Below the pieces are notes generated by a model. It was not told the DNA's origin and ran no database searches. It saw only the letters and a list, made by a program, of their open reading frames with translations. From the NCBI GenBank assembly GCA_014729135.1, contig WJKK01000001.1, forward strand, positions 794,919-858,918: a stretch of DNA of 64,000 nucleotides, in the 5' to 3' direction. Position 1 is the first letter of the stretch. Every line of letters starts with the position of its first letter. The DNA comes from a candidate division WWE3 bacterium. Lineage in GTDB: Bacteria; Patescibacteriota; WWE3; UBA101185; UBA10185. Made by a program: the position numbers and the translations under genes. This document shows positions 5,534 to 64,000 of this stretch, in pieces.

Positions 5534-5725
5534 ACTGTACTGATTATACAGTACTTCTCCTTCTTTCTTTGGGAGTTTTTGTTCGAAATTTAAAGGTTAG
5601 GATCCGGATTCACTAGATTTAGCAGTGAGACAAACGTGGATCCTGATTTTCATCAGGATGACGTCTTCATCAAACCGGAGCCTAATGGGATAACGGCTCC
5701 TCCAAGAGAGCTAAACGTGAAAGGA

Positions 5726-5983
5726 CTAAATCGTGTGCCTATCAGTATAGGGCAAAAGAGCCATGTAACGAGCCTTCTTTATAGCAGCCGAAAGCAATCT
5801 TTGGTTCTTAGCAGTCAACCCCGTTAAAGTCCCACGCAAAATCTTCCCGCGAGAAGTGATAAAACGGCGTAAAATCAGCACATCTTTATAATCCGGTTTC
5901 GTCTCATTCTCCTCAAAATAATCAACATTACTTACCTTTTTATGCGCATAACGACGGCTCTTTTTTCGAACAAACTTACCCAT
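5726..5983 (-). CDS. rpsR: 30S ribosomal protein S18
   Basis: [41 protein letters not shown] matches the S18 core; standard rpsF-ssb-rpsR arrangement. Confidence 0.85.
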
Positions 5984-5992
5984 GTTTAATCC

Positions 5993-6529
5993 TTACTCCT
6001 CAGAATCCTCATTGGAAGAATCATCTAAATCAAAATCTGTATCAGCCAAAATTTCATCTAAATCAACGTCATCATCCATTTTTACAGGATTAGACTTAGC
6101 AGAGGATTTCTTTGCGCCTCCACCGGAGTTTCCCCCACCGGATGAATCTCCACCGGAAGAACTGTTACTCCCACCGGAATCACCTGAAAAACCGCCCTTA
6201 CCACGACTTAAAAGCAACATCTCCTCCAGAACAACTTCCGTACGATAGTGCTTAACATCACTGTCATCAGTCCAACTTCTGGTAGTCAAACGACCTTCCA
6301 AGTAAACCTGAGAACCTTTCTGCAAAAGCTGATCGCAAATCTCAGCTAACTTTCTCCAAGCTACTATATTGTGATACTCAACCGCCTCCTGCTTTTCGCC
6401 ATCAGAAGTCCACTCTCTGTTTGTTGCAACTGCAAAATTTACTACTGCTGCTCCACTGGAAATATACTTCAACTCAGGATCTCTTGTTAAATTGCCTATT
6501 AACATTACTTTGTTTAAACTTCGTGCCAT
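5993..6529 (-). CDS. ssb: single-stranded DNA-binding protein
   Basis: MARSLNKVMLIGNLTRDPELKY OB-fold N-terminus, Gly/Ser-rich linker and acidic C-terminal tail. Confidence 0.9.
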   Translation of the reverse strand: MARSLNKVMLIGNLTRDPELKYISSGAAVVNFAVATNREWTSDGEKQEAVEYHNIVAWRKLAEICDQLLQKGSQVYLEGRLTTRSWTDDSDVKHYRTEVVLEEMLLLSRGKGGFSGDSGGSNSSSGGDSSGGGNSGGGAKKSSAKSNPVKMDDDVDLDEILADTDFDLDDSSNEDSEE

Positions 6530-6599
6530 TTTTAATAATTTCCTTTCGAGTTACTTTTTTAGAGGTTTCAAAAGCCTCAACGGAATAAATCCGCTAAAC

Positions 6600-6887
6600 C
6601 TACTCCTCCAAAGAAGTAACCAAATACCTTACTACATCTTTATGCAGTTCAAGTTCTCGCTGAAGACCCGCGATCTGGGAGGGATCGATATCGAATTCAT
6701 TAACGTCATAGTAGCCTTGCTCATTACCGGCCACTTTATAGGCAAACTTGCGCTTACCCCAGAAGTGCTCAGCCACAACCTCTCCCCCACGGGACGTGAT
6801 CATGCCTTTAACCTCCTCAGAGACGCCCTTTGCTCCGGACTCTCCTAACTCGATATTATAAATTGTCATCAGTTCGTATGAACGCAT
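6600..6887 (-). CDS. rpsF: 30S ribosomal protein S6
   Basis: MRSYELMTIYN...WGKRKFAYKV S6 signature. The start is taken at the third Met of the track ORF. Confidence 0.8.
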   Translation of the reverse strand: MRSYELMTIYNIELGESGAKGVSEEVKGMITSRGGEVVAEHFWGKRKFAYKVAGNEQGYYDVNEFDIDPSQIAGLQRELELHKDVVRYLVTSLEE

Positions 6888-7006
6888 ATTCATAAAGATT
6901 ATACTAAGGCCGTCAAGTGATTGTCTAGGGGGTATATTCCAGTTAAAATAGAATCTCTTCCCATGTTTGCTTTTTTAGCAGACTTAGCAACGGCTTGGGT
7001 ATGTTA

Positions 7007-8209
7007 CTACACACTAAACCTAAATTCAACAACATCTCCTTCTCTCATAGCATAATCCTTACCTTCGGATCGAATCTTGCCTTGGTTACGGGCTTCCTTC
7101 CAGCCTTCTAGTTTAACTAGAATATTGTATGAAATTACTTGAGCTGCTATAAATCCTCGTTGAAAGTCGGAGTGGATTTTGCCTGCTGCTTCGGGGGCGG
7201 TAGAGCCTTCTTTGATGGTCCATGCATGTACTTCTTTTGGGCCATAGGTGAAGAAGGTTTGTAGTCCAAGGAGTTTGTAGCTTTCGCGAATGATTTTGTT
7301 GAGGCCGGATTCTTGAATGCCTACTTGCTCCATGTAATCTTTTTGCTCCTGTGGAGTTAGTGCAGCTAGATCGGCCTCTAATTTAGCGCAAACAGGTATT
7401 CCCTTGATTTGATGGTCAGAATGAGGGGACAGTGCATCGAAATCCTCCCTCGTTGGATTCTGACTTTCGTCAGAATGACGGTGTGGGGAGTGTGTCATCC
7501 CGGACTCGATCCGGGATCCCCAATCACCATAAACATCTTCAGAAACATTAAACACATACATTACAGGCTTTAACGTCAGCAAATTCAAATCCTTAACCAA
7601 TTCTCGCTCCTTCTCCGACAAATCCAAAGTCAAAGCCAACTTTCCCGCATTCAAATGCCCCTGCAGCCTCTTATAAACCGCAAGACGAACAATTGACTCC
7701 TTTTGACCGGACTTGGCAGCTCTCTCCTCCGTTGTAATACGCTTTTCCAAAACCTCCAAATCCGCCAAAATCAGCTCAGTATTAATAACTTCCTTGTCCT
7801 CCTGAGGAGAAACCGAACCCGCCCGAGCAATATTTGCGTCCCTAAACAAGCGCAAAACGTGAATAATTGCATCTACCTCGCGAATATGGCTCAAAAATTT
7901 ATTACCCAATCCTTCACCTTTTGCTGCTCCTTTAACCAATCCGGCAATGTCTACAAACTTAACTACTGCCGGAATCACCTTATCGGGATCCTTATCATGC
8001 TCTTTTCTAACCAAATCCGTCAGACCCTGCACACGAGAATCCGGAACCTCCACAATACCTACATTGGGCTCTATAGTGGCAAAGGGATAGTTGGCAGCCA
8101 GCGCAGTTTGCTTTTTTAGAAGTGCATTAAAAAGGGTGGATTTGCCTACATTGGGAAGGCCTACTATTCCTATGGAGAGGTTTGTGCTTTTGCTTGACAT
8201 AAGAAACAC
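7007..8209 (-). CDS. ychF: ribosome-binding ATPase YchF (Obg-family GTPase) carrying an in-frame repeat-derived insertion
   Basis: P-loop IGIVGLPNVGKSTLFNAL, G-domain motifs and a C-terminal TGS-like region. About 35 aa (SGMTHSPHRHSDESQNPTREDFDALSPHSDHQIKG) are encoded by the dispersed palindromic element at 7456-7520. Confidence 0.85.
   Translation of the reverse strand: MFLMSSKSTNLSIGIVGLPNVGKSTLFNALLKKQTALAANYPFATIEPNVGIVEVPDSRVQGLTDLVRKEHDKDPDKVIPAVVKFVDIAGLVKGAAKGEGLGNKFLSHIREVDAIIHVLRLFRDANIARAGSVSPQEDKEVINTELILADLEVLEKRITTEERAAKSGQKESIVRLAVYKRLQGHLNAGKLALTLDLSEKERELVKDLNLLTLKPVMYVFNVSEDVYGDWGSRIESGMTHSPHRHSDESQNPTREDFDALSPHSDHQIKGIPVCAKLEADLAALTPQEQKDYMEQVGIQESGLNKIIRESYKLLGLQTFFTYGPKEVHAWTIKEGSTAPEAAGKIHSDFQRGFIAAQVISYNILVKLEGWKEARNQGKIRSEGKDYAMREGDVVEFRFSV
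7456..7520. repeat. dispersed palindromic element, family 2 (TCTGACTTTCGTCAGAATGAC ... CCCGGACTCGATCCGGG), inside ychF
   Basis: Related copies at 5638-5662, 13961-14017, 22671-22730 and 27181-27250. Confidence 0.7.
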
Positions 8210-13436: not shown

Positions 13437-15224
13437 CTACACCCCGGGAAGGCCGCCATCAAAAACCTCCAGTAAAGAACCATCCAAACTCACCTCACTA
13501 CTCTGCATACTTGGGACAACAACATTCAAATCGGTTAACTCCCCCGTCTCACGACCCCTCTTTTTAGGAGAGGCTTTCACAACACACTCCAGGGACAACT
13601 CCATATCAAAAACTTCGGAAAAAACCGTCTCCACAATCCTGCGATTTTTTGTATATTCCAGGCGATCTTTGTGAAAGGCAAACTCCACCTCTAAGACCAC
13701 AGCATCCCCTTTGACTTCCACTGGCTCCGCTGCCTTTAGTAAAGCTCTTACCGAGTGATTATATTTGCGAGAGGATCTTAAAACGTCGTTCCATTTTTTG
13801 GCTATTTCGGAGGCGGTTATGTCAATTGGGGACTTTGTTTCAGCTTTTTTCGGGGAGGGGCCTTCACTCCCATCCGGCATCCTACTGCCATCTGCCATCC
13901 CACTTCCGTTTTCCAGCTCACTTACACCCGTCATCCTACTGGCCTCCGCCATTCCGCCTCCGTCTGTCATCCCGGACTTGCTCCGAGATTCGGGACCCTG
14001 ATTTTCATCAGGATGACAAGGTTTAGAGGCATCGGAAGGGTTTTCCTCCACAGGGGTGGGTTTACTGGAAGATCTCTCCTCCGTAGATGTGGAGATATTA
14101 GTCATACCTTTTCCTAGAAAAGGGACAGGCTTCTTAGAGGACTGTCCTCTTAAAGGACTGTCCCCTCCTCCACAAATCTCGGCAACGGCAAGCTCCAAAG
14201 GCAACGTCGCAATATTAGACTCCGCAATCTCATTGCGCGCCTGCAAAAACTTCCGCGTATAAAACACCAAATCCTCCACCGAAAAGCCGGCAGCCTGCTC
14301 CTCCATTAACGCTGCTACCTCCTCCGTAACGTCCGACAAAACACCCTTGGCCCCCGCCTGCACAAACAAAAGCGACTTCAAATACTCCAAAAGCTGATAA
14401 GACCAAACCTCCATGTCCACACCCGACGCAAACTTCTCCTCCAAAAACTCCAAAGCCGAAGCCGCCTCCCCCGCAACCAAAAACGCAACAAAATCATGAA
14501 ACTCAACATAAGACGAAAAACCAAACAAACTCTCAGGATCCAGACTCCCCTGAATCACCTGCTGCAACATCGTCTCCGCATCTCGATAACCACCAAAAGA
14601 CGCCTGCGCAATCTTCCGCAAAGTCGCTTCCGCCACCTCCTCGCCAACCCCCTCCTCCGAAGCAATCAAACCCAACTTGGCAACCAGCTGCTCCATGGAA
14701 GCGCGCCTAAAATTAAAAACCTGACAGCGCGACTTAATAGTATCCAAAACTTTGTGCGGCTCAGTTGTGCACAAAACAAACAGGGCATGCTCCGGCGGCT
14801 CCTCCAAAGTCTTAAGCAAGGCGTTAAAAGCCTCCTTGGTCAACATGTGAACCTCGTCAATTATATAAACTTTTTTCGTTCCTTGCGAGGGAGCCAGGCC
14901 AATTCGATCACGAAGATTGCGAATGTCATCAATTCCGCGATTACTGGCAGCATCAATTTCTATTAGGTCCAGAAAATTACCTTTTTTAATGGTCTTACAA
15001 TTTGGGCAGGTATCGCAAGGATCACCATTTGGCTGAATGTTTGTGCAGTTTGCAGCCTTAGCCAGTAAACGCGCGGTTGTAGTCTTACCGGTTCCACGAG
15101 GGCCAATGAAAAGGTAGGCGTGCGAAAGGTTCCCATTTTTTACCTGAGTAGCCAGTGCATCTGCAATGGGGTTTGGCTTAACAAGTTCGCTAAATTTTTG
15201 CGGTCGGTATTTTAGATAAAACAT
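13437..15224 (-). CDS. dnaX: DNA polymerase III subunit gamma/tau, with a repeat-laden C-terminal linker
   Basis: AAA+ Walker A FIGPRGTGKTTTARLLAKAANC and zinc module CDTCPNC. The C-terminal region (coding coordinates about 13850-14170) contains low-complexity peptide repeats encoded by three dispersed DNA repeat families. Confidence 0.9.
   Translation of the reverse strand: MFYLKYRPQKFSELVKPNPIADALATQVKNGNLSHAYLFIGPRGTGKTTTARLLAKAANCTNIQPNGDPCDTCPNCKTIKKGNFLDLIEIDAASNRGIDDIRNLRDRIGLAPSQGTKKVYIIDEVHMLTKEAFNALLKTLEEPPEHALFVLCTTEPHKVLDTIKSRCQVFNFRRASMEQLVAKLGLIASEEGVGEEVAEATLRKIAQASFGGYRDAETMLQQVIQGSLDPESLFGFSSYVEFHDFVAFLVAGEAASALEFLEEKFASGVDMEVWSYQLLEYLKSLLFVQAGAKGVLSDVTEEVAALMEEQAAGFSVEDLVFYTRKFLQARNEIAESNIATLPLELAVAEICGGGDSPLRGQSSKKPVPFLGKGMTNISTSTEERSSSKPTPVEENPSDASKPCHPDENQGPESRSKSGMTDGGGMAEASRMTGVSELENGSGMADGSRMPDGSEGPSPKKAETKSPIDITASEIAKKWNDVLRSSRKYNHSVRALLKAAEPVEVKGDAVVLEVEFAFHKDRLEYTKNRRIVETVFSEVFDMELSLECVVKASPKKRGRETGELTDLNVVVPSMQSSEVSLDGSLLEVFDGGLPGV
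14122..14166. repeat. REP palindrome cluster (GGGACAGGC..GGACTGTCC..GGACTGTCCCC) inside the dnaX coding sequence
   Basis: Same GGAC(A/T)GTCC units, 6-7 nt apart, as the RAYT-flanking REPs; translated in frame as GGGDSPLRGQSSKKPVPFLGKG. Confidence 0.8.
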
Positions 15225-21946: not shown

Positions 21947-23595
21947 TTTGCAGGGCGCAAAGGTTGGTCCTGCTCAAACGTAAGCCCAAGCTTCACCGCA
22001 GCCTCCGCCTTAGCCAACTGCCTCCCCAAATCACAAGCAGCTCCCAAATCGCTAACAAGCAAATCCTTAAAAATCATAGCCGACAAATCTCGTGCCGCCT
22101 TCTCTGCATGACCATCAATAGAAAACTTAGCCAACTCCTTAGTACCCTCCGGTGAGAAAAACGTCACCAAAATTTGCGAACTGTCATCCCCTGACAAACA
22201 CACCGTATAATAACCGCGAGGATCATACTGGCAAGTGCGCCCTAAATGATCATTTTCTGCCACTACGGCCAAAGCAGCCTCCCAATTAATCTCGTAAATC
22301 TCGGCAATATGGGAAATTGTGGTTAAAACACCCATCTCACAAGAAATCTTATGGGATAACTTTTTTTGAAAAGCTCGCAAGGCAAAGACGTTCAACGGCC
22401 AAGCCCCATAGATGTCGTTATTTCTGAACACGGCTGTCATGTCAAACTTCCCATCTACAACCTGACCTAAAATCATAACCATGCAAGGCACTCGCCACTT
22501 TTTGGTCTGCCCCATTTCCTTACGCTCAATATCAGAGGGGGGAAAATTGTCGTTATGCGGCTCCCATAAAACCGCCAATGCTCCCCTATCAAAGTTAAAG
22601 CGCTTTAATTTTTCCACCATGATTTTTTCCTGATCTAAGGGAATGTTTAGTTTGAAGTCAGGGTTTTTGGATTCCGGATCGAGTCCGGAAGAACGGGAAT
22701 CCGTAGAACTAGAGGCGGAATGACGGGAAAGACCTCCGAAGGAGTCTCTCCCCCACTTAAAAATTCGCTCCCCGTAAGTGTAAACCTCCTGTTTTTCTCC
22801 CGATTTGTTAGGCTCATTAGGATCAAAGAACCCCTTTATATAAAGGTCTAGCTGCTTTTTATCAAAATTAAAAAAGTCGTAAATCTCAGGACTTGCGGGA
22901 TCCTCTTCCTCAACAACAATGGAAAGGTTTTGAACCTGGCCAACCTCACCGTACATTCCGGGAATTCGACGACCAAAGCGAGTTACTGTTTTTAGAGCAT
23001 CCAACCAAGCTTCTCCAATGTATTTTCTACGGATTTTAAAAACTGACCTGTCGGTGGGAAATGTTTTAGGAGCAGCTTTTTCCGCCTCAGGAAATGTTAT
23101 AGGTTGTGTAAAGGGTTCCGTGTTTTTTGAGGCCTCATGCACCTTGGCTACTTTTCTTGCCAAATCCTCCAGAGATTCTAAACGAAAGTCATAAAAAGCC
23201 ACCTTTTGTCTTAGTAGCTCCAAAATCTCCAAAGGGATCTCCTTGTCAATAAAAGCTTTTTTTGTGTTTTTAATTGCCCAATGCGTAATATTCTCATTCT
23301 CATCCTGAACCGGCTCCACTCCTTTTTCAAAAAAATTCTTTAAAGCTATACCACTTTCCTGCCGATCTATTCCACACAAAAACAGATGCCGAATTTTTGG
23401 ATTAGCAAGAATGTTTCGCAAAAGATAGTTGATGCCTCCTTTTGTGTAGAGCTGCCCACATGCTGCAAAAGTTTGAGGAGTGAGCTTTTCGGCAACCATT
23501 TCTTTTGGCATCCAAAGTGTTGCTATTGCAGTGGAGGAGTTTAGGTTTTCCATTAGGATGCGGTCTTTGAAGTATTTCGGCCAGTTTTCAATCAC
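21943..23595 (-). CDS. thymidylate-synthase-like (ThyA-fold) multidomain protein, 550 aa, carrying an in-frame repeat-derived insertion
   Basis: The core WEPHNDN...VPCMVMILGQVVDGKFDMTAVFRNNDIYGAWPLNVFALRAF aligns with the ThyA PCH...DGKLSCQLYQRSxDVFLGVPFNIASYALL region; catalytic Cys, Arg and Asp are retained. There is an N-terminal extension of about 190 aa and a C-terminal extension of about 80 aa. Residues SRHSASSSTDSRSSGLDPESKNPD are encoded by the palindromic element at 22671-22730. Confidence 0.6.
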   Translation of the reverse strand: MIENWPKYFKDRILMENLNSSTAIATLWMPKEMVAEKLTPQTFAACGQLYTKGGINYLLRNILANPKIRHLFLCGIDRQESGIALKNFFEKGVEPVQDENENITHWAIKNTKKAFIDKEIPLEILELLRQKVAFYDFRLESLEDLARKVAKVHEASKNTEPFTQPITFPEAEKAAPKTFPTDRSVFKIRRKYIGEAWLDALKTVTRFGRRIPGMYGEVGQVQNLSIVVEEEDPASPEIYDFFNFDKKQLDLYIKGFFDPNEPNKSGEKQEVYTYGERIFKWGRDSFGGLSRHSASSSTDSRSSGLDPESKNPDFKLNIPLDQEKIMVEKLKRFNFDRGALAVLWEPHNDNFPPSDIERKEMGQTKKWRVPCMVMILGQVVDGKFDMTAVFRNNDIYGAWPLNVFALRAFQKKLSHKISCEMGVLTTISHIAEIYEINWEAALAVVAENDHLGRTCQYDPRGYYTVCLSGDDSSQILVTFFSPEGTKELAKFSIDGHAEKAARDLSAMIFKDLLVSDLGAACDLGRQLAKAEAAVKLGLTFEQDQPLRPAN

Positions 23596-26613: not shown

Positions 26614-27051
26614 AAACAAGATGGGGGTCGCCCAAAGACGCTTGGGCGATCCCTGCTACCACTCCCCTTTTTAACTACTCCACATAAAACGTTTTCAAAA
26701 AGCACACTCTTTTCCCTTTTTTAAAACCATTCCATAGATTTGCACGATATCCTATAAAGTAATAAAATTGTCCCTGTCGCCAAAATTTCATTGCGAAAGG
26801 AGAAACTCGTGAGCGGAAAGACAAAAATCGTGGTGAGGTGCACTTGCTCGAAAAACCCCATATACAAGGGAAAATCGATACGAAGGGCTCAAGAAGTCTA
26901 TCAAGAGCACGCAAAGCAAGGACACCAACCTGGATTTGGTTCCTCAAAGTAGAGTATCTCGCGGGTGAGACTGCCAAAGACGTAATCGGCAAGCTCATTC
27001 GCGAGACCATCCCCCTTCCACAAACAACTTCAAACTCAAATTCCATTTTTT

Positions 27052-27129
27052 ATAAAGCGCAGAAATATCCCTTTTGAACGAATTTTGGCGTACTCGCCAA
27101 CCTGAGCAAAAAAGGGATATTTCAAGCTG
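27052..27129. repeat. 78-bp structured palindromic repeat, copy A
   Basis: ATAAAGCGCAGAAATATCCCTTTTG..CGAATTTTGGCGTACTCGCCAACCTGAGCAAAAAAGGGATATTTCAAGCTG is nearly identical (2 mismatches) to 49781-49858. It has 16-bp outer inverted arms and an inner TTGGCG/CGCCAA hairpin. Confidence 0.8.
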
Positions 27130-27291
27130 CTAAATCAAAAGGGGTGAAGCGAGAAAGGGTATGCCTGTTTTATCAGAGATCCTGACTTTCGTCAGGATGA
27201 CGGTATGAAGCTCAGGATGACGCACTACTAAAAAGGATGACGGAATACAAAATTTAGAATAGGTAAACAAGCTCTGGAGGTATGACCGGAT

Positions 27292-29448: not shown

Positions 29449-29679
29449 ACTCTTTGAAGGATACTGGGTTGGGGGGTTTTATGCAAATGTAAGCTCAACC
29501 CTGCTTTCCGGCTCCACGACGTCATGTGCTCGGCTGTCTTTTTGCTCTTTTTCTGAAACGCTTGGCCAATGCAAGCATACCCGCCCTCTGTCTCCACGAC
29601 TCCATTTCATTTCGTAATGTCGCCAGAGGGAGGGCGTGCTTTTCGGGAACTGGAGTATGATACTCAAGAAAATGGGGGT

Positions 29680-31773
29680 TTATTCACGGTTCTCGGAAAA
29701 CCAGTAATCCAAGAGCGTGCGAGCAATAGGAGCAGCATCATCAGAACCCCCTCCCCCACCTTCCAAGAAAACCGTCAAAACAATTTCAGCATCCTCCAAG
29801 GGCCCCCAAACTGTAAACCAAGCATGCGTCCTTTCATTGCCTTGCGGATCAATATACTCAGAAGTTCCTGTCTTGCCGGCCAGCACCACTCCGTACTTTT
29901 CCGGAAAATCAAACACAGGGTAACCCGTTCCTCCCGGAGTAACCGCCCGTCGAAGCCCTTCACGAACCAAATCCAGAGTCTGCGGAGAAATTAAATCGCG
30001 CGCTAAAACCTCCTTTGAAGTTGCCTCCCCCGCCACCTCGGAAACCACACGAGGGCGCAGCAGCTCGCGCCCATTAGCAAAGTAAGAAGTCACCATATTC
30101 ACCTGCAAGGGAGTCGCCAAAAAGTCGCCCTGCCCAATGGAAGTGATGTAAGTGTCGCCCAAATACCAGTCTTTGTAGTCGCCATCAGGGACAAAGCCTG
30201 CCACTTCTCCCGGAATATCGATACCTGTTTTAGCGCCAAAGCCAAATTTTTTTGACCAATTGGAGATGCGGTCAATGCCTAGGCCTTCAATGTTGCCGTA
30301 GCCTCCTCCTATGGTGTAAAAGTAGGTGTCGTTGCTGACCTGGAGGGCTCTTAAGAGGTCCACTTGGCCATGCCCGTCGAGTTTCCAGTTTCTAAATGTG
30401 TAGCCTGCAACGGAAAGGTAACCGGGGTCGTTGATAGTGCTATAGGGTGTTATGGCGGATTCTTCGAGCGCTGCTGAGGCCATAACCATTTTATAGGTCG
30501 ATCCGGGAGGGTAGTTGGCGCCAATTGCTCTGTTGAAAAAGGGGTGGTTGTAGGTTTCTTCTAAGGTGGCAAGTTCGGCGGAGGTTACTCCTGAGACCAT
30601 TTTTTGGGCGTCAAAGGAGGGGTAGCTGGCTAGAGCAAGGACACCTCCGGTTTGTGGGTCTTGGGCTACAACGACTCCGGCGTCTGCTGTGGCTCCGGGG
30701 ATTTTTTCGTTTTCCGGAGTGGCGGGGCTGTTAGGGTCTGCGGAGGTGTTGGAGTTTTTGGAGGCGTCAACAGCTTTTTTCAGTTCTTCATAGGCTAGTT
30801 TTTGAAGGCCTATGTCGGCAAAAAGTTTAATGTTTTCGCCGGGAACGGGATCTTTGGTGTCAAACTCCCGGAGGCTTTCGTTGGAGGAGTTTACTTGAAT
30901 TAATCTTTGTCCGGAAATTCCTGTTAGTGGCTTGTTGTAGGAGGCTTCTAAGCCGGTTTTTCCTTCTATTAGTGGGGTTAGGCTTTCGTTGGAGAGGCCG
31001 GTGTAACCAAGGAGGTGTGCAAAGGCTTCGGGATAGTGGTAGTCGCGGGTGGGATAGGTTAGGACATCGATGGCGGGGACTTTTTGTGTTCCAAGGGAGT
31101 CCAGTAGTGAGGCGGATTCAAGCGAGAGGAGTTGATCTTTGTTAAGGTTCTGCGCAATTACAAGGGATTGAATTCCCGGTGTATCGAGTTGGGTGAGTTG
31201 AGGGACAGTCCTTTGAGGGGACAGTCCTTTCCAGGGACTGTCCTCTCCGAGGACAGTCCTCTTAAAGGACTGTCCCCTCCTCAGGTGATCGAGCGTGTCT
31301 GAGACTAGGCGTTTACAAAGAGTACGATCTTTACCCAAACTGCATCGGGACACATTAAGTACAAGGTTGAAAGTTGGGCGGTTTTGCGCAATTACTTCTC
31401 CTTTTTGATCAAAAATGACTCCTCGTGGGGCGGGAATTTCATAAGTACGTGTCCGATTTCTTTGAGCCAGTGCCTGATATTCCTTCGACTCCAAAACCTG
31501 TAATTTAAATGCTCGCGCAAAAAAAACTAAGAAACTTGCCAGCAATAAAAAAGTAAAAAACAAGAGGTGCCCATGAAAAGTTTTGCGACCGGAGTTAAAA
31601 TAGTCCTTACCTATTAGGGGATTAACCTCGTTTAAATGCGCACCCTCCCCTCCCCTTTTTAAACGGCTCCTTTTTGAACCGGACTTTCCCGGGTATTTAA
31701 AACGCAATAACCTCTTTAAAAAAGACTCCCCACCCTTTAACTCCTCAAAAAAGTTCGGATTTATTGCGTTCAT
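29680..31773 (-). CDS. mrdA: class B penicillin-binding protein 2 (elongasome transpeptidase), with an in-frame REP insertion
   Basis: SxxK (GSTYKM), SxN (VSNDTYF) and KTGT (AGKTGTSE) motifs; sits in the mreBCD-pbp2 arrangement. RRGQSFKRTVLGEDSPWKGLSPQRTVPQL is encoded by five copies of the GGAC(A/T)GTCC palindrome at 31202-31277. Confidence 0.85.
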   Translation of the reverse strand: MNAINPNFFEELKGGESFLKRLLRFKYPGKSGSKRSRLKRGGEGAHLNEVNPLIGKDYFNSGRKTFHGHLLFFTFLLLASFLVFFARAFKLQVLESKEYQALAQRNRTRTYEIPAPRGVIFDQKGEVIAQNRPTFNLVLNVSRCSLGKDRTLCKRLVSDTLDHLRRGQSFKRTVLGEDSPWKGLSPQRTVPQLTQLDTPGIQSLVIAQNLNKDQLLSLESASLLDSLGTQKVPAIDVLTYPTRDYHYPEAFAHLLGYTGLSNESLTPLIEGKTGLEASYNKPLTGISGQRLIQVNSSNESLREFDTKDPVPGENIKLFADIGLQKLAYEELKKAVDASKNSNTSADPNSPATPENEKIPGATADAGVVVAQDPQTGGVLALASYPSFDAQKMVSGVTSAELATLEETYNHPFFNRAIGANYPPGSTYKMVMASAALEESAITPYSTINDPGYLSVAGYTFRNWKLDGHGQVDLLRALQVSNDTYFYTIGGGYGNIEGLGIDRISNWSKKFGFGAKTGIDIPGEVAGFVPDGDYKDWYLGDTYITSIGQGDFLATPLQVNMVTSYFANGRELLRPRVVSEVAGEATSKEVLARDLISPQTLDLVREGLRRAVTPGGTGYPVFDFPEKYGVVLAGKTGTSEYIDPQGNERTHAWFTVWGPLEDAEIVLTVFLEGGGGGSDDAAPIARTLLDYWFSENRE
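31202..31277. repeat. REP palindrome array (5 copies of GGAC(A/T)GTCC) inside the mrdA coding sequence
   Basis: gggacagtcc tttgag gggacagtcc tttcca gggactgtcc tctccga ggacagtcc tcttaaa ggactgtcccc, read directly. Confidence 0.85.
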
Positions 31774-34477: not shown

Positions 34478-34494
34478 ATGGTGAGTTTAGCAGA

Positions 34495-35276
34495 GGGGAC
34501 AGTCCTCTTAAAGGACTGTCCCCTTTTGAAATTCTAGTTTAGCTAGAATATTGGTTTGAAAAAGGATTATAGGATGAAAAAAAGCGGAGATTAATCTTCG
34601 AGATTTACAAATCTTTTATACCCGGGACCGGACTTTTTGAAGTGCTGAAGCACTTCCGAAGTATCCAAAAACTTAAAACTTTTCCCGGGCGAAACAGCAG
34701 AATCCTGATAAAAAGAAAAGCTGGAATAGGGATAAGAAAAGATCTCTTTGTCTAATTCCAAGGGATTGCGGTGAATGTAGCGACTAACATGCAAAAGATC
34801 GGCGGAATCCTTAATAAGACGAGCCTTATACCGACCCTCCAACAAACGACCTCTAAGAGCGTATCTGCCTTTACAATAAAAAACATAACTGAGCTGTAAG
34901 CTTTTCATGAAGCGCGACATGTCATATTCTTCCTTTTGTTTTAAAAGAAGGTGAAAATGCGTGGGCATCAGACAAAAAGCATAAAGAGATATTTTTTCGT
35001 GGAAAGTTTTTCTATTACTTATAGGATTATTTCTTTCTAAAAGCTTATCCCTCAAAAAACTAAGGAAAACTTTGTAATCTTGTTCATCGCGAAACAACAA
35101 ACCTCGATCATTGGCTCTATTATAGGCGTGATAGATACCCTCTTCTTGATAATCTTTTAGAGCATTCTTGGCGGGCATATTTAAATCCTACTCAATATTT
35201 AGTCCAATTCAAGTGCCTATATTCTAGTTAAATTGGAATCTCTAAAAAAGGGACAGTCCTCTTAAAGGACTGTCCC
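34495..35276 (-). mobile_element. RAYT (REP-associated tyrosine transposase) gene flanked on both sides by REP hairpins
   Basis: REP GGGACAGTCCTCTTAAAGGACTGTCCC at 34495-34524 and 35250-35276 brackets the tnpA-like ORF. Confidence 0.65.
34591..35178 (-). CDS. REP-associated tyrosine transposase (IS200/IS605-like Y1 HUH transposase)
   Basis: HUH motif PTHFHLLLK; catalytic Tyr region SRYIHRNPLE (the YxxxNP pattern of RAYTs); N-terminal YHAYNRANDRGLLF. Confidence 0.7.
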   Translation of the reverse strand: MPAKNALKDYQEEGIYHAYNRANDRGLLFRDEQDYKVFLSFLRDKLLERNNPISNRKTFHEKISLYAFCLMPTHFHLLLKQKEEYDMSRFMKSLQLSYVFYCKGRYALRGRLLEGRYKARLIKDSADLLHVSRYIHRNPLELDKEIFSYPYSSFSFYQDSAVSPGKSFKFLDTSEVLQHFKKSGPGYKRFVNLED

Positions 35277-35302
35277 TTCCAAAAATATGGTAAAATGGCG
35301 GT

Positions 35303-49653: not shown

Positions 49654-49780
49654 TTGAAACTCCTTCCTTTCGTCTCTCTCAACAGGAGAGACATACATAA
49701 TATAAACGACACTAACGGTCAACGTACCAAGCACAATAACAAAAAAACTTTTATTCCGCAACTTTTTTCCCGCTCTTTTC

Positions 49781-49858
49781 ATAAAGCGCAGAAATATCCC
49801 TTTTGCGCGAATTTTGGCGTACTCGCCAACCTGAGCAAAAAAGGGATATTTCAAGCTG
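49781..49858. repeat. 78-bp structured palindromic repeat, copy B
   Basis: Near-identical to 27052-27129, read directly. Confidence 0.8.
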
Positions 49859-50143
49859 TGAAACCAGGAAGAAATGAGGGGAAAAAGAAAAAGGCCCGCC
49901 AAAGCGAGCCTCCTTCATGTCTAAAAAAAATCAAAATAAAACCGCCCGACGTGCCGTTCCACCGGAGTAGAATCCCTCGATTCTAAAGTGGGTTTCCTAT
50001 CTTGAGTCTTTACTCCCAAGAACCCGGAATCCCTATAAGCGAGTGTTGAGACTTACTTCAGTTCCGGCTTTTTCGAACACGTCAGAGTAGAGCTTTTTTC
50101 ATCTCTTATGCTAATTATATCAAAATTTCAGGCGCGTCAAATC

Positions 50144-50764: not shown

Positions 50765-50972
50765 GTTGGGATTATATCATTCCCTTCGTTAGTCTCTGCT
50801 AAATAAGGAGGCCTGCCCATCTTTTTGTCTCCACGACTCCATTTCATTCCGTAATGTCGCCAAAAAGAGAGCCGACCTCCTTAAACTCCCATCCCCTATC
50901 TTATCGTGACACTCCTCCAAAAATGCAAACTAAAAATAACAACCTGCCCCCAAAATATGATAGAATTCCACA

Positions 50973-59879: not shown

Positions 59880-61067
59880 TCAAAGGATTTGTTGTTTTTG
59901 GAGGTGTTTTTAAGTGCTTAATTTAATGCATACCTTTAGGAAAGATTCGGAAAACTTTTTGGGATAATGTTTTACTCAGGTTACTCGTGAGAATTTTTAA
60001 AGGAGTTTTGGAGTACGCTTTTAGGATAACTACAAAAGCCAGAAGGAGCGTTAGCAGGCGAAACCACGGAATGACAAATGGAGCGATCAAAATAAGCACA
60101 AGAGATGAAAAAGGGTGTAAATTTTTGATAAATCGCTAATTTGCAAATTATAACAACCTAAATAGCAAAGATCAAGGAAAAGCACGTGTTTCCTCTGGCT
60201 TTAAAGCCGTCCAAACAGAGGGTGCAAACTTTGTTATACACCCCTGTGGAGGGGAATAAAAAGGTTTATCAGACACAACACAAAGAGTGCCAGGTAAGAA
60301 GGCAATTTTTACTCATTTTACTCAAAACCATTCCATAGAGGTTGAAAAGTAGCGGGAATAGGGGTACATGTGTTGAGTCATTAGGAGAACTCAAAACAGC
60401 TCTCCTCCGATAAGTTTTTGAGGAAAATCGACAACATCTAGATCAATATCATCTAGCAACTTTTTAAGAAAAAAGATGAGAGCTGATTTAGGTTTGAGAA
60501 AATTACTTTGATTTTCCTAAAACACACCGCGCACAAAACAACGCAATTGCACACAAAGCTCTCTTTGGAAATTTTTGAGCAATTTCGTAACTTTTAGACC
60601 AGTCCAGTAGAGGCTTACCCTTTTCTAAAATCAACGGCATATTACTTAAAAAGACAAATTCCAGAAGAGCCTCCACTTTATATAGGATGAAATTGAACAA
60701 GTAAGGAGCTTTTTTCGATATAGAAATAAAAATTTCTCCGCAAGGGTGCCTAATTAAACAAATGCGCATTATTTTTTATTTCAAAAAATCAAATTTTTGA
60801 AACGGCGCCAAAGTAAAGAAAAATTTAGTTTTCAGAAAAAAGAAATTTTTAGGACTCCCCTACTCTGCAAAAGAAATCATCTTAAATTGAGTAGACAGTT
60901 GACTCAAAAAACCTCTCGACTGACTCTAGAAATTCTAAACGAAAAAAATCAGCTTAGTATTGGAGGCTGAGGTTTAGAAACTCCCAAAGTATCAATTTAA
61001 AAGTATTGTATGTCAAAATGGAGTGAAAAAACCGCTTAAAACGAATTCTAGAGCCTCGCTTGAAAAA

Positions 61068-61127
61068 GGGACAGGCTTCTAAGGGGACAGTCCTTTGAAA
61101 GGACTGTCCTCTCCGAGGACAGTCCCC
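61068..61127. repeat. REP palindrome array (4 copies), intergenic
   Basis: gggacaggc ttctaag gggacagtcc tttgaaa ggactgtcc tctccga ggacagtcccc. Confidence 0.85.
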
Positions 61128-61292
61128 TATAGTAAGCGAGCCCCTCTAGTAACTGTGGAAAAGTTGTTGACTTAAGCACTTGCATGGGATACTATTTATA
61201 TAACCTTGTTATTTGGCTCTATAAAGGTTTGTGACAAGGCTTTGAAAAACAATGACGACCAACAAAATGCCGGTTTAAAGAAAGAAAGAAAC

Positions 61293-64000
61293 ATGCCCGA
61301 TTCTGCCCAAGATAAAAACTACAAACAAAAAAACAGCTCAAAAACACCCCATAAGAAATATAATCTTAACGTTTCAAAAGCAGCAAAGCTTTTGGGAGTT
61401 TCCGCCTCCACGCTCCGCCGCTATGCAAAGGAAGGCAAAATCACCTCTCAGCGAGCAGAAAATGGCTACCGAAAGTTCTCAAAAACCGATGTTTTAGAGC
61501 TGAAGGATCGCTTGGCAGAGGAAGAGCGCCAAAAGGAGTTGGCCAAACAACAAAAGATGGAAAGAAATCCCAAAGCGATATCCGCACCGAAAAGCTCCTC
61601 GTTGTCGACGAGAAATGCAAGTCCTTCGGGCATTACACATCAACGTTACAACTCCGAATCCCGAATCAAGTCCAGAATGACAGGTACAAAAACAAAGGCA
61701 AAAACGAAAATTATCAAGCCCCGCAAAAAACAAAAGGAAGCAAACAAACTCCCACCGGCAGCTAAAAAAAGAATTCGACAAACAACAAATGCAACTGCCC
61801 TTGCAGGCATAACAAAGGGCATGTCGGCAGGAATCACCGCTTCAGCTATGGCCTTAACCGCAACCCTGGGCCTAACGCTGGCAACTTCCATTGCACCTAA
61901 AACCGCCAGACTCCAAGCAATGACAAAGGCTGAAGATATTACGGAAGTGGGCTTGGAGCATTTGGCTAGCGTTTATATTGAGAAAGTGAACCCACAGATA
62001 GAAAAGGTGGAAAAGGGATTGGCTGCCCTGACTCCAAACTATAACGAAGAGGATTCCGCTTCCGGATCGGTGTCCAGAACGACGGGAGCAGGCGAAGTGA
62101 CAAAAAGCACACTACTCTCCCGCTTAACAGGCAACAAAGAAAACCAACAAGGAATACTAGCCTCCAAACTCTCACCTGAACTTGCAGCTAAAATCCCCGC
62201 AGAATTTTCCTCCAAACTTGCACAAGCCCCCAAAATTCTAGGGCGAAGAACAACCCGACCCGACTTTGCCCTAGAACTCAACGTTCCCACCACAGTTCGA
62301 AACGACCTCACCGTAGAAGGAGCCATCACCGCTCAAACCTTATCCGTGCTTGCTGGCGGTCTATCAACTGAGAACCAGGGTATTGACACTGGAACAGGTG
62401 CTCTGACAGCGGGCTCCTTAACCTTTACAGCAGGAAGCACGGGCAGCCTCAACAACCTACTAACAATTGACGATCAAACTCAAACCACTCTAGAAGAAAC
62501 ATTAGAACTTGACGGCGATTTAGAAGGGACACTTGACGAGACAACAATAGCAACTCTTGGTGGAGCAGATGTAGGCGACATAGACTCCGGAGAACTTTTA
62601 ATATTAGACGGTGATGAAATCACATCCGGTGAAATAACTGACTTAGACACAACAGCAATTACAGAACTAGGCACAATCTCAACCGGAACCTGGACAGCAA
62701 CAGAAATAGGACCAACTTACGGAGGCACAGGACTCACAACATACACAACAGGCGACCTCCTCTACTCCTCCGCCTCAAACACGCTCGCAGCTCTCAACAT
62801 AGGCACAGAAGGCTACGTTCTCACTTCGACATCCGGAGTGCCAGCATGGACCGACATAGCCTCCGCCACAAACGCAGTTATTGGCAACCGCATTTACACC
62901 GAAAACAACTACGTCACGGACAGCCAAACAGTGACAGCCTCCATAGAAGCCTTGGACACCTCCATTTACGCCACATTTGGAAACCGCACCTACACCGAAG
63001 ACAACTTTGTAACCGATGCAGAAAGCATAACCTCCTCCATCGACGCACTTGACCAAGCAGTCTACTCCAACGCCTCCGGAGAAACAGGCCTCTGGAGAGT
63101 TTCAGACTCCGGAACATACATTTACCCAAACAACTTCTCCACCCTAGCAGTAACCGACTCCGGAAGACTTGGCATTGGCACCACCTCCCCCGACGCAGAG
63201 TTGCACGTTGAAGGCAGCGTTGTTCTGGGAGGCGATTCCAACGACACTATCACCTTTACAGGAGGAGTGACAACAGGCGGGTCACTTACTCCCGCCATAA
63301 ACCTAGGAGCAGACCTGGGGTCAGAAGACAAACGCTTCAACAACATCTACGTAGAAAACATCAACAACAACTCCCAATTAGAACAAGGCGGACAGGCAAT
63401 TTTCTCCTACGTTCCCGGAACCGCAGAAGGAAGCGACGAAACCAGCTGGACAGAGTCCACTGTTAGAATCAACCCAACAACTGCCCCAACCGACTCCTGG
63501 CTCTTTGGACTTGGTGTAGCCGGAAGCGAAGTAGCCGGAATCTACCATGACGGTGACTCATATTTTGAAGGCAGCATGGGAATCGGCCGTACTTCCCCAT
63601 CCGCAAAACTACATATAGAAGGAACCACCGAGCAACTACGTTTAGGCTATGACAGCAGCAACTACACCAGTTTTACTATAGGCAGCGACGGCGAACTGAC
63701 AATCGCAGACAGCGGAACAGACGTAGCCGTACTAGGCGCAACCCAAGCCAAATTCAGCGTACCAACCACATTCGACTCCGCGGGGGACGTGTCAATTGCA
63801 AACGACCTCGTCTTTACAAACCAAACCAGCGCCAACATTCAGTCCTATGGTCCTTTATATATAGAAGCGGGCGAAAATTTTGAAAACAACGATCTGACGC
63901 TAAAAACCTACGGCACAGGCAACGTCGCCATGGACCTTTCCGGCACGGGCTACCTGCACTTAATGGCTACGGACCCCGCAATTGTTTTTGACACGGCAAC
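61293..64000 (+). CDS. giant membrane/surface protein, 5' partial (over 900 aa in the window): N-terminal MerR/Xis-like HTH, Lys-rich linker, one TM helix, then Thr/Gly-rich repeats with phage-tail-fibre-like IGTTSP...LHVEG motifs
   Basis: Translated by hand in the frame of the ATG at 61293, with no stop codon through 64000. HTH: NVSKAAKLLGVSASTLRRYAKEGKITSQRAENGYRKFSKTDVLEL. TM: GMSAGITASAMALTATLGLTLATSIA. Repeats: LGIGTTSPDAELHVEGS and MGIGRTSPSAKLHIEGT. A TTGACT-N17-TACTAT promoter-like sequence lies about 120 nt upstream. Not in the supplied track because the ORF runs off the window edge. Confidence 0.6.
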   Translation, partial: MPDSAQDKNYKQKNSSKTPHKKYNLNVSKAAKLLGVSASTLRRYAKEGKITSQRAENGYRKFSKTDVLELKDRLAEEERQKELAKQQKMERNPKAISAPKSSSLSTRNASPSGITHQRYNSESRIKSRMTGTKTKAKTKIIKPRKKQKEANKLPPAAKKRIRQTTNATALAGITKGMSAGITASAMALTATLGLTLATSIAPKTARLQAMTKAEDITEVGLEHLASVYIEKVNPQIEKVEKGLAALTPNYNEEDSASGSVSRTTGAGEVTKSTLLSRLTGNKENQQGILASKLSPELAAKIPAEFSSKLAQAPKILGRRTTRPDFALELNVPTTVRNDLTVEGAITAQTLSVLAGGLSTENQGIDTGTGALTAGSLTFTAGSTGSLNNLLTIDDQTQTTLEETLELDGDLEGTLDETTIATLGGADVGDIDSGELLILDGDEITSGEITDLDTTAITELGTISTGTWTATEIGPTYGGTGLTTYTTGDLLYSSASNTLAALNIGTEGYVLTSTSGVPAWTDIASATNAVIGNRIYTENNYVTDSQTVTASIEALDTSIYATFGNRTYTEDNFVTDAESITSSIDALDQAVYSNASGETGLWRVSDSGTYIYPNNFSTLAVTDSGRLGIGTTSPDAELHVEGSVVLGGDSNDTITFTGGVTTGGSLTPAINLGADLGSEDKRFNNIYVENINNNSQLEQGGQAIFSYVPGTAEGSDETSWTESTVRINPTTAPTDSWLFGLGVAGSEVAGIYHDGDSYFEGSMGIGRTSPSAKLHIEGTTEQLRLGYDSSNYTSFTIGSDGELTIADSGTDVAVLGATQAKFSVPTTFDSAGDVSIANDLVFTNQTSANIQSYGPLYIEAGENFENNDLTLKTYGTGNVAMDLSGTGYLHLMATDPAIVFDTA

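Follow-up and report, generated by a model that had tools for sequence, protein, structure and literature searches.

Short repetitive palindromes of the CGTC class (CGTC-REPs) are defined by a CGTC, TGTC or CCTC tag, an 8-9-bp stem that starts with AT, a loop of 4-5 nt and a 3-nt tail with the consensus CCA (PMC3733652). Many copies are dispersed through each host genome, often as inverted dimers, and some lie within genes, those for replication and repair in particular, with no transposase alongside; CGTC repeats on both sides of a tyrosine transposase gene have been found in no species (PMC3733652). For the most part REPs are situated directly 3' of ORFs, and they are probably transcribed; members of the CGTC class include dRS3 of Neisseria and RPE-4/6 of Rickettsia (PMC3733652). 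A hairpin of this kind, CGTCATTCCCGCG...GGGAATC, has been reported as the single-stranded-DNA-specific target of SsnA, a GIY-YIG nuclease (Nat Commun 2025, PMC11893778). Cutting by SsnA depends critically on the three nucleotides 5' of the palindrome and binding on the C that follows it, RNA is not bound, and SRM-type motifs are found near 71% of ssn homologues (PMC11893778).

The window analyzed here, a 64-kb stretch of DNA from a candidate division WWE3 bacterium (Patescibacteria), contains seven well-formed hairpin-repeat units and one decayed unit, with a chance expectation of 0.1-0.2. These are very probably CGTC-tagged repetitive palindromes (CGTC-REPs; Ssn-related motifs, NTS-like repeats), i.e., non-coding, non-autonomous hairpins of 27-28 nt; they share with that class the tag, the AT-first 8-bp stem, the types of 4-5-nt loop and the lack of a flanking transposase. 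As the class has already been described (PMC3733652) and its protein partner Ssn was reported in 2025 (PMC11893778), the novelty of the element implied by an earlier note on this DNA is unsupported. What is new is the host phylum, which belongs to the Candidate Phyla Radiation (CPR), a group unmentioned in the main text of either paper.

Anatomy and copy number of the repeat

A unit reads, in order, [C/T]GTC as the tag, one arm of an 8-bp stem that opens with AT, a loop, the return arm and usually a C. The loop is either GAAA (loop-4) or five nucleotides of the form CTYGN (loop-5); across the units GAAA occurs four times, and the 5-nt loops read CTCGA, CTTGC, CTTGA and CTCGA. All seven well-formed units are tagged, three with CGTC (5640, 7457, 27179) and four with TGTC (7494, 13966, 13995, 61658), while the tag position of the decayed unit at 22671 reads CGTTC. 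The stems of all six strict units are 8 bp long with AT first and form 7-8 of 8 Watson-Crick pairs; that of the 61658 unit has five Watson-Crick and three G-T pairs. GTC precedes the palindrome in 7/7 units and a C directly follows it in 5/7, with 3' tails of CCA (two units, or three counting the decayed one), CCC (two), CTC (one) and TCG (two).

Several counts indicate that the dispersed palindromic family proposed in the earlier note is genuine, and that it is distinct from the GGGACAGTCC family. The 22-mer TCCTGAYTTTCRTCAGGATGAC is found with at most two mismatches at 5641, 7458, 13996 and 27180, always on the + strand, giving four matches in the window and none in 100 shuffles. A structure-aware scan of the window returned six strict units where 0.18 were expected, and a scored scan seven where 0.1 were expected. 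The sequence CCCGGACTCGATCCGGG, with 0.05 occurrences expected, is present at 7499, 13971 and 22673(-). In total there are eight units at six loci in 64 kb, including two inverted dimers, and all except one lie in the first 28 kb of the window. The five sites listed in the earlier note do carry units, and a further unit at 61658-61681(-) had been overlooked. Terminal inverted repeats and target-site duplications are absent from the units, and an Rfam search of the window at the gathering threshold returned four tRNAs only.

Identity among the units is 76-83% over 27-28 nt and only 19-32% in the flanks, and this drop at the unit edges indicates that the repeat is the 27-28-nt unit and not a 60-70-nt element with two hairpins. 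The copies had been described as ~60-nt elements with two hairpins each, to be regarded as chance palindromes if identity beyond an 8-10-bp core fell below 60%. Identity is well above that level, and the sites resolve into separate tagged units, sometimes paired as dimers, with unrelated flanks. Two hairpins are present in the dimers at 7457-7517, where the tags face inward across a 14-nt spacer, and 13966-14017, where they face outward across a 5-nt spacer; the sites at 5638-5662 and 27181-27250 have one hairpin each, the latter accompanied by two half-copies. The four loop-4 units are all on one strand and all in sense orientation. For this small sample, transcription, replication or chance could account for the strand bias.

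Intergenic copies and half-site duplications

The intergenic loop-4 unit at 5640..5662 (-), aCGTC-ATCCTGAT-GAAA-ATCAGGAT-CCA, lies 64 nt past the stop codon of rpsR (5726-5983), sense to the ssb-rpsR transcript, and folds as DNA with -9.3 kcal/mol (z = -3.8). The second, CGTC-ATCCTGAC-GAAA-GTCAGGAT-CTC at 27179..27201 (-), is found 91 nt past the topA stop (27292) and is sense to topA. Terminator scans at 5640 and 27179 detected no T-run and no terminator-like site, so these hairpins are not intrinsic terminators.

On the same strand as the topA unit, 20 and 40 nt 5' of it, are two half-sites, CGTCATCCTGA and CGTCATCCT (27210..27242 (-)). With the full unit they make up three copies of AGGATGACG spaced by exactly 20 nt (27194, 27214 and 27234), in agreement with the triplicated motif noted earlier near 27181-27250. 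Half-site duplications ~20 nt 5' of full units occur in the window and in five other lineages, and half-sites are counted upstream of full units 19 times and downstream five times. Such duplications could be the footprint of the mechanism by which CGTC repeats are copied, and may give a handle on how these repeats are generated.

Copies within protein-coding genes

As previously noted, the units at 7456-7520, 13961-14017 and 22671-22730 are located inside intact ORFs, encoding YchF, DnaX and a ThyA-like protein, respectively. The ychF dimer consists of a loop-4 unit, CGTC-ATTCTGAC-GAAA-GTCAGAAT-CCA at 7457..7479 (-), in frame and sense to the gene (peptide RHSDESQNP) and with a stem that differs from the other copies by two compensatory changes, and a loop-5 unit, TGTC-ATCCCGGA-CTCGA-TCCGGGAT-CCC at 7494..7517 (+), in frame and antisense (peptide GSRIESGMT). 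A probable half-site remnant, CCTCATTCTGAC followed by diverged sequence, lies at 7409..7432 (-) and encodes the peptide SPHSDHQ. This remnant falls inside a net insertion of ~29 aa that follows the NVSED motif of YchF in an alignment of homologues. YchF residues 228-249 are encoded by the repeats and overlap a segment with pLDDT<50 (residues 231-263).

In dnaX, the loop-5 unit TGTC-ATCCCGGA-CTTGC-TCCGAGAT (13966..13989 (+), 7/8 pairs) is in frame in the linker and antisense, encoding ESRSKSGMT, and the loop-4 unit TGTC-ATCCTGAT-GAAA-ATCAGGGT (13995..14017 (-), 7/8 pairs) is in frame and sense, encoding CHPDENQGP. The copy occupies approximately residues 403-420, between domain III (232-352) and DnaX_C (471-554), and its tags-outward arrangement is also seen at other Patescibacteria loci. 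On the 5' side of the loop-5 unit, at 13864..13963 (+), is a run of ~18-nt periodic tag and half-stem relics (GGCATCC, GCCATCC, CGTCATCC, GCCATTCC), a weak period-18 tandem repeat that encodes the GMT / GMA / RMT / RMP peptide repeats of the DnaX linker. This run appears to derive from the CGTC element.

The ThyA-like / DUF4346 gene carries a 108-nt (36-aa) in-frame insertion at 22642..22749 (-) that consists of decayed units, sense to the gene: CGTC-ATTCCG..CGGATT, in which the loop is expanded, is followed by CGTTC-TTCCGGA-CTCGA-TCCGGAA-TCCA at 22671-22694 and by a piece of an antisense loop-4 unit. The additional 36 aa are missing from 12/12 homologues and lie inside a segment with pLDDT<50 (residues 260-320). 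The ThyA-like insertion is thus larger than the earlier note has it. Comparison with predicted structures, as the earlier note had proposed, places the added YchF and ThyA-like peptides respectively overlapping and within predicted disordered segments. The fourth coding copy, a decayed loop-5 unit with three G-T wobbles, TGTC-ATTCTGGA-CTTGA-TTCGGGAT at 61658..61681 (-), is in frame and antisense (peptide SESRIKSRMT) in a + strand ORF with an N-terminal MerR HTH that runs from 61272 to past the window end. Loop-5 units are antisense to the host gene in three of four coding copies.

Coding copies are inserted cleanly and in frame, at a variable loop, in a linker or in a region of predicted disorder. 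The 20-36 extra residues in YchF, DnaX, the ThyA-like protein and the MerR-headed ORF are to be read as repeat-derived filler and not as functional domains, and short ORFs built on CGTC repeats elsewhere are best regarded as spurious.

Distribution in relatives and in other genomes

Three syntenic relatives (L121-L123), compared over 36 kb at 65-70% protein identity, contain zero CGTC units, so the units spread in the WWE3 lineage after its split from those relatives. Among the matches listed from other genomes, both loop classes and many different complementary stems recur across phyla, and the loop types of the window units also predominate in the 120 loci listed. Because these units were picked for pairing, it is the variety of stems and not the pairing itself that counts as evidence. 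At least nine Patescibacteria loci with such units are found among the matches listed, typically as GAAA + CTTGA heterodimers. A second Patescibacteria genome has in-frame units at two UvrB sites. Dimers are located between type IV pilin genes in a Patescibacteria genome other than that of the window, as are NTS repeats in Neisseria. A scan of viral contigs returned 10 loci, several of them with inverted doublets like those of Sphingomonas, and is uninformative for the CPR. CGTC/SRM repeats can now be extended to the Candidate Phyla Radiation.

Alternative explanations

Contrary to the earlier statement that the window has no neighbouring transposase, a Y1 (IS200/RAYT-like) transposase gene is present at 34591-35178 (Y1_Tnp, with HUH (HFH) and YIHRNP motifs). 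It is the sole transposase-like gene in the window and entered recently between mreB and def, two genes that are neighbours in the relative L122. Since tagged single-stranded-DNA hairpins are substrates of Y1 transposases, and this gene has itself recently moved, the CGTC units might be taken for REPINs mobilized by it. The GTAG REPs and REPINs associated with RAYTs are likewise short hairpins with a tag, which often come as inverted pairs and may lie within genes, and are thought to act as single-stranded DNA. However, the tag of the window units is CGTC or TGTC and not GTAG, and on either side of the transposase gene stand 62-nt inverted repeats with the hairpin of another family (GGGGACAGTCCT-CTTAA-AGGACTGTCCCC, family-1), the nearest CGTC unit being more than 7 kb away. 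Together with the lack, in any species, of a CGTC-flanked tyrosine transposase gene (PMC3733652), this renders mobilization by the Y1 enzyme quite improbable. Even a genome of ~0.86 Mb tolerates two expanding hairpin families, one of them with its RAYT present.

Three further explanations bear on the nature of the unit itself. That the units are chance or convergent short palindromes of no common origin could be argued from their shortness and from how common intergenic hairpins are, but this is refuted by the shuffle controls (zero against four observed, 0.18 against six and 0.1 against seven), and the conserved unpaired tag, loop and tail and the identity of the units to a class found in many phyla leave it a negligible probability. 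The adjacent loop-4 and loop-5 units at 7457-7517 and 13966-14017, and the GAAA + CTTGA heterodimers of other Patescibacteria, which in one genome form part of a ~100-nt repeat (L102, L111), would be expected of an RPE- or MITE-like composite of ~60-70 nt transposing as one piece. Such a composite is improbable, as the two window dimers differ in order, orientation and spacer, two sites have a single unit, the flanks are no more than 19-32% identical, and neither terminal inverted repeats nor target-site duplications accompany the units. A role in RNA, in which 3'-UTR hairpins with a GNRA tetraloop stabilize or punctuate transcripts and their spread is kept by that function and not by partnership with a nuclease or mobile element, is unlikely, if less so than the composite. 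It accords with the two intergenic copies past rpsR and topA, whose mRNA would carry CGUC-stem-GAAA-stem, with the sense orientation of all four loop-4 units, and with the prevalence of REPs, probably transcribed, 3' of ORFs (PMC3733652). On the other hand, the T-run of an intrinsic terminator is missing, loop-5 units are mostly antisense in genes, coding copies could not act as 3' stabilizers, and single-stranded-DNA recognition by Ssn accounts for the conserved unpaired tag and for the C that follows the stem, SsnA binding no RNA (PMC11893778). A function at the RNA level would be compatible with the assignment of the units to the CGTC-REP/Ssn class.

Ssn and a possible mechanism

Under the preferred reading as CGTC-REPs, a small GIY-YIG nuclease (Ssn; cd10448) would bind the hairpin as single-stranded DNA, as in Neisseria, Wolbachia and others. 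Binding would require the stem and the next C, with single-stranded DNA bearing 5'-CGTCATCCTGACGAAAGTCAGGATC as the substrate, and cutting would take place a few nucleotides 5' of the tag, with GTC required, on a substrate of the form 5'-N10-CGTCATCCTGACGAAAGTCAGGATCCA. The repeats may depend for their multiplication, as a non-autonomous partner, on an SRM-ssn-SRM cassette or on some other enzyme that acts on single-stranded DNA. Copies inserted in genes would persist only where they bring no stop codon in frame and where the peptide that they add to a surface loop is hydrophilic (xHSDESQNP, SRIESGMT), and the surviving ones would later decay through point mutation.

The association of these repeats with Ssn-like genes is seen in other genomes. 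The loop-4 20-mer CTGACTTTCGTCAGGATGAC has an exact match on both sides of an Ssn-like GIY-YIG ORF in Sphingomonas faeni (L077), and also adjoins Ssn-like ORFs in a Pseudomonadota MAG (L049) and a Bacteroidetes MAG (L057). In the window, which is ~7% of the 864-kb contig, tblastn (E<=10), a 3-sequence Ssn HMM, a GIY-YIG regular expression and Pfam searches on all plausible genes identified no Ssn/GIY-YIG gene; in the Patescibacteria loci, the GIY-YIG regular expression, tblastn and the 3-sequence HMM likewise identified no Ssn. One weak tblastn match to Ssn (L053) lies in an ORF that by eye looks RecO-like and not Ssn. The units may conceivably constitute an orphan CGTC/SRM family in a genome that lacks Ssn. 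Some other activity would then copy or maintain them, or, as markers, they would influence how incoming single-stranded DNA recombines in a DNA-uptake-dependent episymbiont; this is a doubtful reading, on which the dimers between pilin genes and the 5' half-site duplications both bear. If the genome does have Ssn, Patescibacteria would be a natural place to study Ssn and SRM outside Neisseria.

Comparison with known repeat systems

The window units share their architecture, CGTC-AT-stem-GNRA-like loop-stem-AT-C, with the dRS3/NTS/SRM repeats of Neisseria, the organism in which alone a role of SRM and Ssn in transformation has been demonstrated. The GTC of the tag and the C that follows the stem, both critical for SsnA, are conserved in 7/7 and 5/7 window units, respectively. 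The stem sequence differs (e.g., ATCCTGAC in the window vs. ATTCCCGC in Neisseria), so that most window units fail the published SRM regular expression: HGTCWYN(0-2)YYVSBRHN(0-5)WNVSBRGN(0-2)RNCYNB matches one of seven (7493-7521), and the loop-4 units miss it at stem positions. As this pattern was derived from GC-richer stems, the mismatch lowers formal membership and not mechanistic similarity.

Rickettsia RPEs and the window units are both palindromic repeats that sit in frame within genes for essential proteins, in hosts whose genomes are reduced. The classical RPE-1 is longer and is unrelated to the 27-nt units. The RPE-like in-frame tolerance proposed in the earlier note is borne out, and RPE-4 and RPE-6 of R. 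conorii belong to the same CGTC superfamily, as CGTC-4 and CGTC-1, respectively (PMC3733652), their likeness to the window units being literal at the level of class features.

The window units also correspond closely to the CGTC-REPs as a whole. CGTC-1 has a 4-nt loop and CGTC-2 to -4 a 5-nt loop (PMC3733652), and the window units are like them in tag, stem and loop and, in part, in the short tail, which is often CCA. In both, singletons are found together with inverted dimers, heterodimers included, at sites that lie just 3' of ORFs, and in-frame copies encoding ~20-30 aa are present, with DNA replication and repair genes prominent among their hosts (PMC3733652). The tails in the window (CCA, CCC, CTC, TCG) vary more than those of described CGTC-REPs, and the copy number of ~8 per 64 kb looks low in comparison. 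The host also differs, in that the WWE3 genome of ~0.86 Mb stands beside the Proteobacteria, Chlorobi, Bacteroidetes, Spirochaetes and Thermotogae listed as hosts of CGTC-REPs (PMC3733652).

Tagged hairpin units of the window

Pfam annotation of all plausible genes in the window (41–47% GC) describes a housekeeping region: htrA, ctpB, a vapBC pair, rpsR, ssb, ychF, fic, cysS, recR, dnaX, pth, ybeY, rpsU, rseP, frr, tsf, rpsB, APH, a ThyA-like/DUF4346 gene, dCMP deaminase, HIT, topA, PBP2, mreC, mreB, def, fmt, a tRNA cluster, a 2150-aa alpha-2-macroglobulin, PBP1, secE, nusG, rplK, rplA and the ATP synthase operon. Over the first 35 kb, almost every gene is encoded on the minus strand. Within this region, the motif TCCTGAYTTTCRTCAGGATGAC occurs four times at two or fewer mismatches (5641, 7458, 13996 and 27180), with no matches in 100 dinucleotide shuffles, and a second motif, that of the loop-5 units, occurs three times versus 0.05 expected. 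A structure-aware scanner (GTC, an 8–9-bp stem starting with AT, a 3–7-nt loop, at most one mismatch) detected six units, versus 0.18 in Markov shuffles. A scored scan returned seven units at a threshold with 0.1 expected, among them one at 61658–61681 that was absent from the list in the earlier note; it also recovered a decayed unit at 22671–22694. By these motif counts and shuffle controls, the dispersed repeat family outlined in that note is real and statistically solid, and its broad description was correct.

Every unit follows a common plan, read 5' to 3' on the tag strand: (C/T)GTC, AT-N6, a loop, N6'-AT and, mostly, C. Units with a four-nucleotide GAAA loop lie at 5640, 7457, 13995 and 27179, all on the minus strand; those with a five-nucleotide loop (CTCGA, CTTGC or CTTGA) lie at 7494 (+), 13966 (+) and 61658 (-), along with the decayed unit at 22671 (-). 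The stems differ between copies in a compensatory manner (e.g., ATCCTGAC/GTCAGGAT, ATTCTGAC/GTCAGAAT and ATCCTGAT/ATCAGGAT). Pairwise identity over the 27–28 nt from tag to tail is 83% for loop-4 and 76% for loop-5 units and falls to 19–32% in the 30-nt flanks on either side, indicating that the repeated entity is a single tagged hairpin. The assignment of two hairpins to each copy thus holds only where two units happen to adjoin, in the differently built dimers at 7457–7517 (tags inward, 14-nt spacer) and 13966–14017 (tags outward, 5-nt spacer). Well-formed units fold strongly as single-stranded DNA (-9.3 kcal/mol, z = -3.8 for the 5640 unit; z = -3.4 and -4.4 for the two strands of the ychF dimer), and the decayed units do not fold in this form. 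The reported triplication of AGGATGACG was confirmed at 27194, 27214 and 27234, with an exact 20-nt period; behind it are two half-sites, each a copy of the tag and 5' stem half, located 20 and 40 nt upstream of the full unit on the same strand.

Coding and intergenic copies

The coding copies are textbook in-frame insertions in tolerant protein segments. Compared with 13 homologues, YchF is longer by ~29 residues, inserted immediately behind the NVSED motif, where length also varies in other lineages. The CGTC dimer encodes residues 228–249 (GSRIESGMTHSPHRHSDESQNP), and a half-site relic contributes an additional SPHSDHQ; in the AlphaFold model (mean pLDDT 77.8) the only long low-confidence segment is 231–263. 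The ThyA-like protein has a clean 36-residue insertion found in none of 12 aligned homologues, and this is predicted to lie within a segment of pLDDT below 50 (260–320), in a weaker model (pTM 0.46) that serves as supporting evidence only. In DnaX, the dimer encodes residues ~403–420 (CHPDENQGPESRSKSGMT), between domain III (232–352) and the C-terminal domain (471–554), in a linker that also carries a family-1 array (14114–14182) and a run of tag-like relics with an 18-nt period. In an ORF at 61272–64000 (+) with an N-terminal MerR-type helix-turn-helix, the unit at 61658 supplies SESRIKSRMT immediately behind that domain. This ORF, which exceeds 900 aa and continues past the window end, is of unusual architecture, with a Thr/Gly/Ser-rich region lacking a Pfam match after the helix-turn-helix; the 1.4 kb preceding it contains no convincing gene.

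The surviving frames recur in different genes, as xH(S/P)DE(S/N)Q(N/G)P for loop-4 sense and (S/E)SR(I/S)(E/K)S(G/R)MT for loop-5 antisense. These hydrophilic frames, in the few copies available, are compatible with purifying selection on where and how copies persist. In a second Patescibacteria genome (JTS-AC14), uvrB (5766–8000 of locus L099) has CGTC units in frame at two distinct places, with CHSGESQNL and DSDFHQND as the encoded peptides. Relative to a typical UvrB, these are probably insertions. A parallel is the uvrB case described for R. conorii in 2013.

Two units are intergenic, located 64 nt past the rpsR stop (5640) and 91 nt past the topA stop (27179). Because both are oriented in sense, a GAAA-capped hairpin would be present in the transcript. 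They lack a T-run and are therefore not intrinsic terminators; a role of these hairpins in RNA stability is possible. The unit downstream of topA abuts one copy of an 83-nt repeat (27047–27129 and 49776–49858, 96% identity) that contains a 13-bp inverted repeat, AAATATCCCTTTT...AAAAGGGATATTT, and neither copy has an Rfam or Pfam match. The region downstream of topA is shorter by ~900 nt in the relative L122. A sub-threshold match to 6S RNA lies immediately upstream of the second copy and spans the full model length (49939–50091 (-), 31.4 bits versus a gathering score of 46.4, E = 1.7e-4). A 37-nt repeat is also present at 29589–29625 and 50826–50862 (97% identity).

The Y1 transposase, family-1 repeats and age of the copies

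The statement that no transposase neighbours the repeats in the window must be revised, as a Y1 (IS200/RAYT-like) transposase is encoded at 34591–35178 (-), with HFH and YIHRNP motifs and a Pfam Y1_Tnp match above the curated cut-off (E = 1.8e-8). The gene has inserted between mreB and def, direct neighbours in L122, and is bracketed by 62-nt inverted repeats (34493–34554 and 35216–35279, 84% identical), each containing the family-1 hairpin GGGGACAGTCCT-CTTAA-AGGACTGTCCCC. Because family-1 hairpins flank it, this transposase is likely the mobiliser of the family-1 repeats, and the segment 34493–35279 looks like a REPtron for them; no link between the transposase and the CGTC units was found. 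Family-1 palindrome arrays (GGAC(A/T)GTCC core, 16-nt period) occur at 14114–14182, 31185–31294 and 61060–61144. Those at 14114–14182 and 31185–31294 fall within open reading frames, in the dnaX linker and the dimerisation-domain region of the PBP2 gene, and family 1 therefore also inserts in-frame in proteins.

Syntenic relatives are represented by contigs L121 (ychF-rpsF-ssb-rpsR) and L122 (def-mreB ... topA ... thyA-like ... frr), at ~65–70% protein identity, and by the shorter L123, which has the same thyA-like-to-frr genes as L122. Neither CGTC units nor family-1 cores occur in these 36 kb; both families therefore expanded after the split from these relatives. Several coding copies have since decayed, including 22642–22749 and 61658, the latter with three transition-type G-T pairs.

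Occurrence in other genomes

A scan for the 20-mer CTGAYTTTCRTCAGRATGAC across one genome per species returned at least 120 loci, compared with a uniform-composition chance expectation of ~9 matches for the whole collection; the matches also agree in unscanned stem bases and tag context, beyond that estimate. Most of the matches listed are from Sphingomonas, with units as inverted doublets ~60 nt apart, Patescibacteria have nine loci (Shapirobacteria, Saccharibacteria, Nomurabacteria, Daviesbacteria and unclassified), and further hosts include Bacteroidota, Ignavibacteria, Pragia and Oceanisphaera. The usual Patescibacteria arrangement, a GAAA unit and a CTTGA unit with tags outward, is that of the dnaX dimer. 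In a 598-kb Patescibacteria contig (L102 4752–7658, L111 2225–2278), GAAA + CTTGA dimers belong to a longer ~100-nt repeat located between type IV pilin-like genes in tandem, an arrangement reminiscent of how NTS, the Neisseria version of the repeat, clusters around pilin genes. Loops are conserved across all loci and stems take many mutually complementary forms (ATCCTGAC, ATTCTGGC, ATCCCAGC, ATCCCCGC and ATTCCCGC, the last being the Neisseria stem); this diversity is descriptive and not a test, because units were selected for pairing.

Half-sites lacking the hairpin recur ~19–40 nt upstream of full units in the window and in loci of several phyla (L026, L039, L051, L060, L098 and L110), with near-identical examples in Pragia, Ignavibacteriales, Bacteroidales, Acidimicrobiales and Sphingomonas. 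Within 60 nt of 316 units from the window and fetched loci, 19 half-sites lie upstream versus 5 downstream, although the ychF relic, a counter-example, sits downstream. This upstream excess may be a footprint of repeat copying or repair.

Relationship to CGTC-tagged REPs and Ssn

The anatomy of the units agrees feature by feature with the CGTC-tagged REP superfamily of Di Nocera, De Gregorio and Rocco (PMC3733652). Its members have an unpaired CGTC, TGTC or CCTC tag, stems of 8–9 bp with A and T "almost invariably" first, loops of 4 nt (family 1 of that scheme) or 5 nt (families 2–4) and a 3-nt tail near CCA. They frequently form inverted dimers, including heterodimers, lie just downstream of ORFs and have no associated transposase; intragenic copies encode 20–30 aa, many in replication and repair genes (PMC3733652). 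Rickettsia conorii RPE-6 and RPE-4 belong to the superfamily, as does Neisseria dRS3 (PMC3733652), and the earlier impression of "RPE-like" behaviour was therefore literally correct.

A protein partner was found in 2025: SsnA, a 94-aa GIY-YIG nuclease whose binding and cutting of NTS (CGTCATTCCCGCGMAVGCGGGAATCYRG) are restricted to single-stranded DNA and to the tagged strand (PMC11893778). Cleavage, a few nucleotides 5' of the tag, is governed by three nucleotides 5' of the palindrome, and binding by the C after it (PMC11893778). Slipped repair or copying from such a cut would, speculatively, be a source of the half-sites. Ssn-related motifs (SRMs) occur near 71% of ssn homologues, often on both sides (PMC11893778). 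Homology searches and Pfam found no GIY-YIG gene within the 64-kb window. Small, mutually homologous GIY-YIG ORFs directly adjoin the exact 20-mer in three fetched loci, from Sphingomonas faeni (L077, motifs on both sides), a Pseudomonadota metagenome-assembled genome (MAG; L049) and a Bacteroidetes MAG (L057), and the loop-4 sequence type of the window is therefore tied to Ssn-like genes independently of PMC11893778. The window units are thus the CGTC-REP/SRM class in a CPR genome and not a new kind of element.
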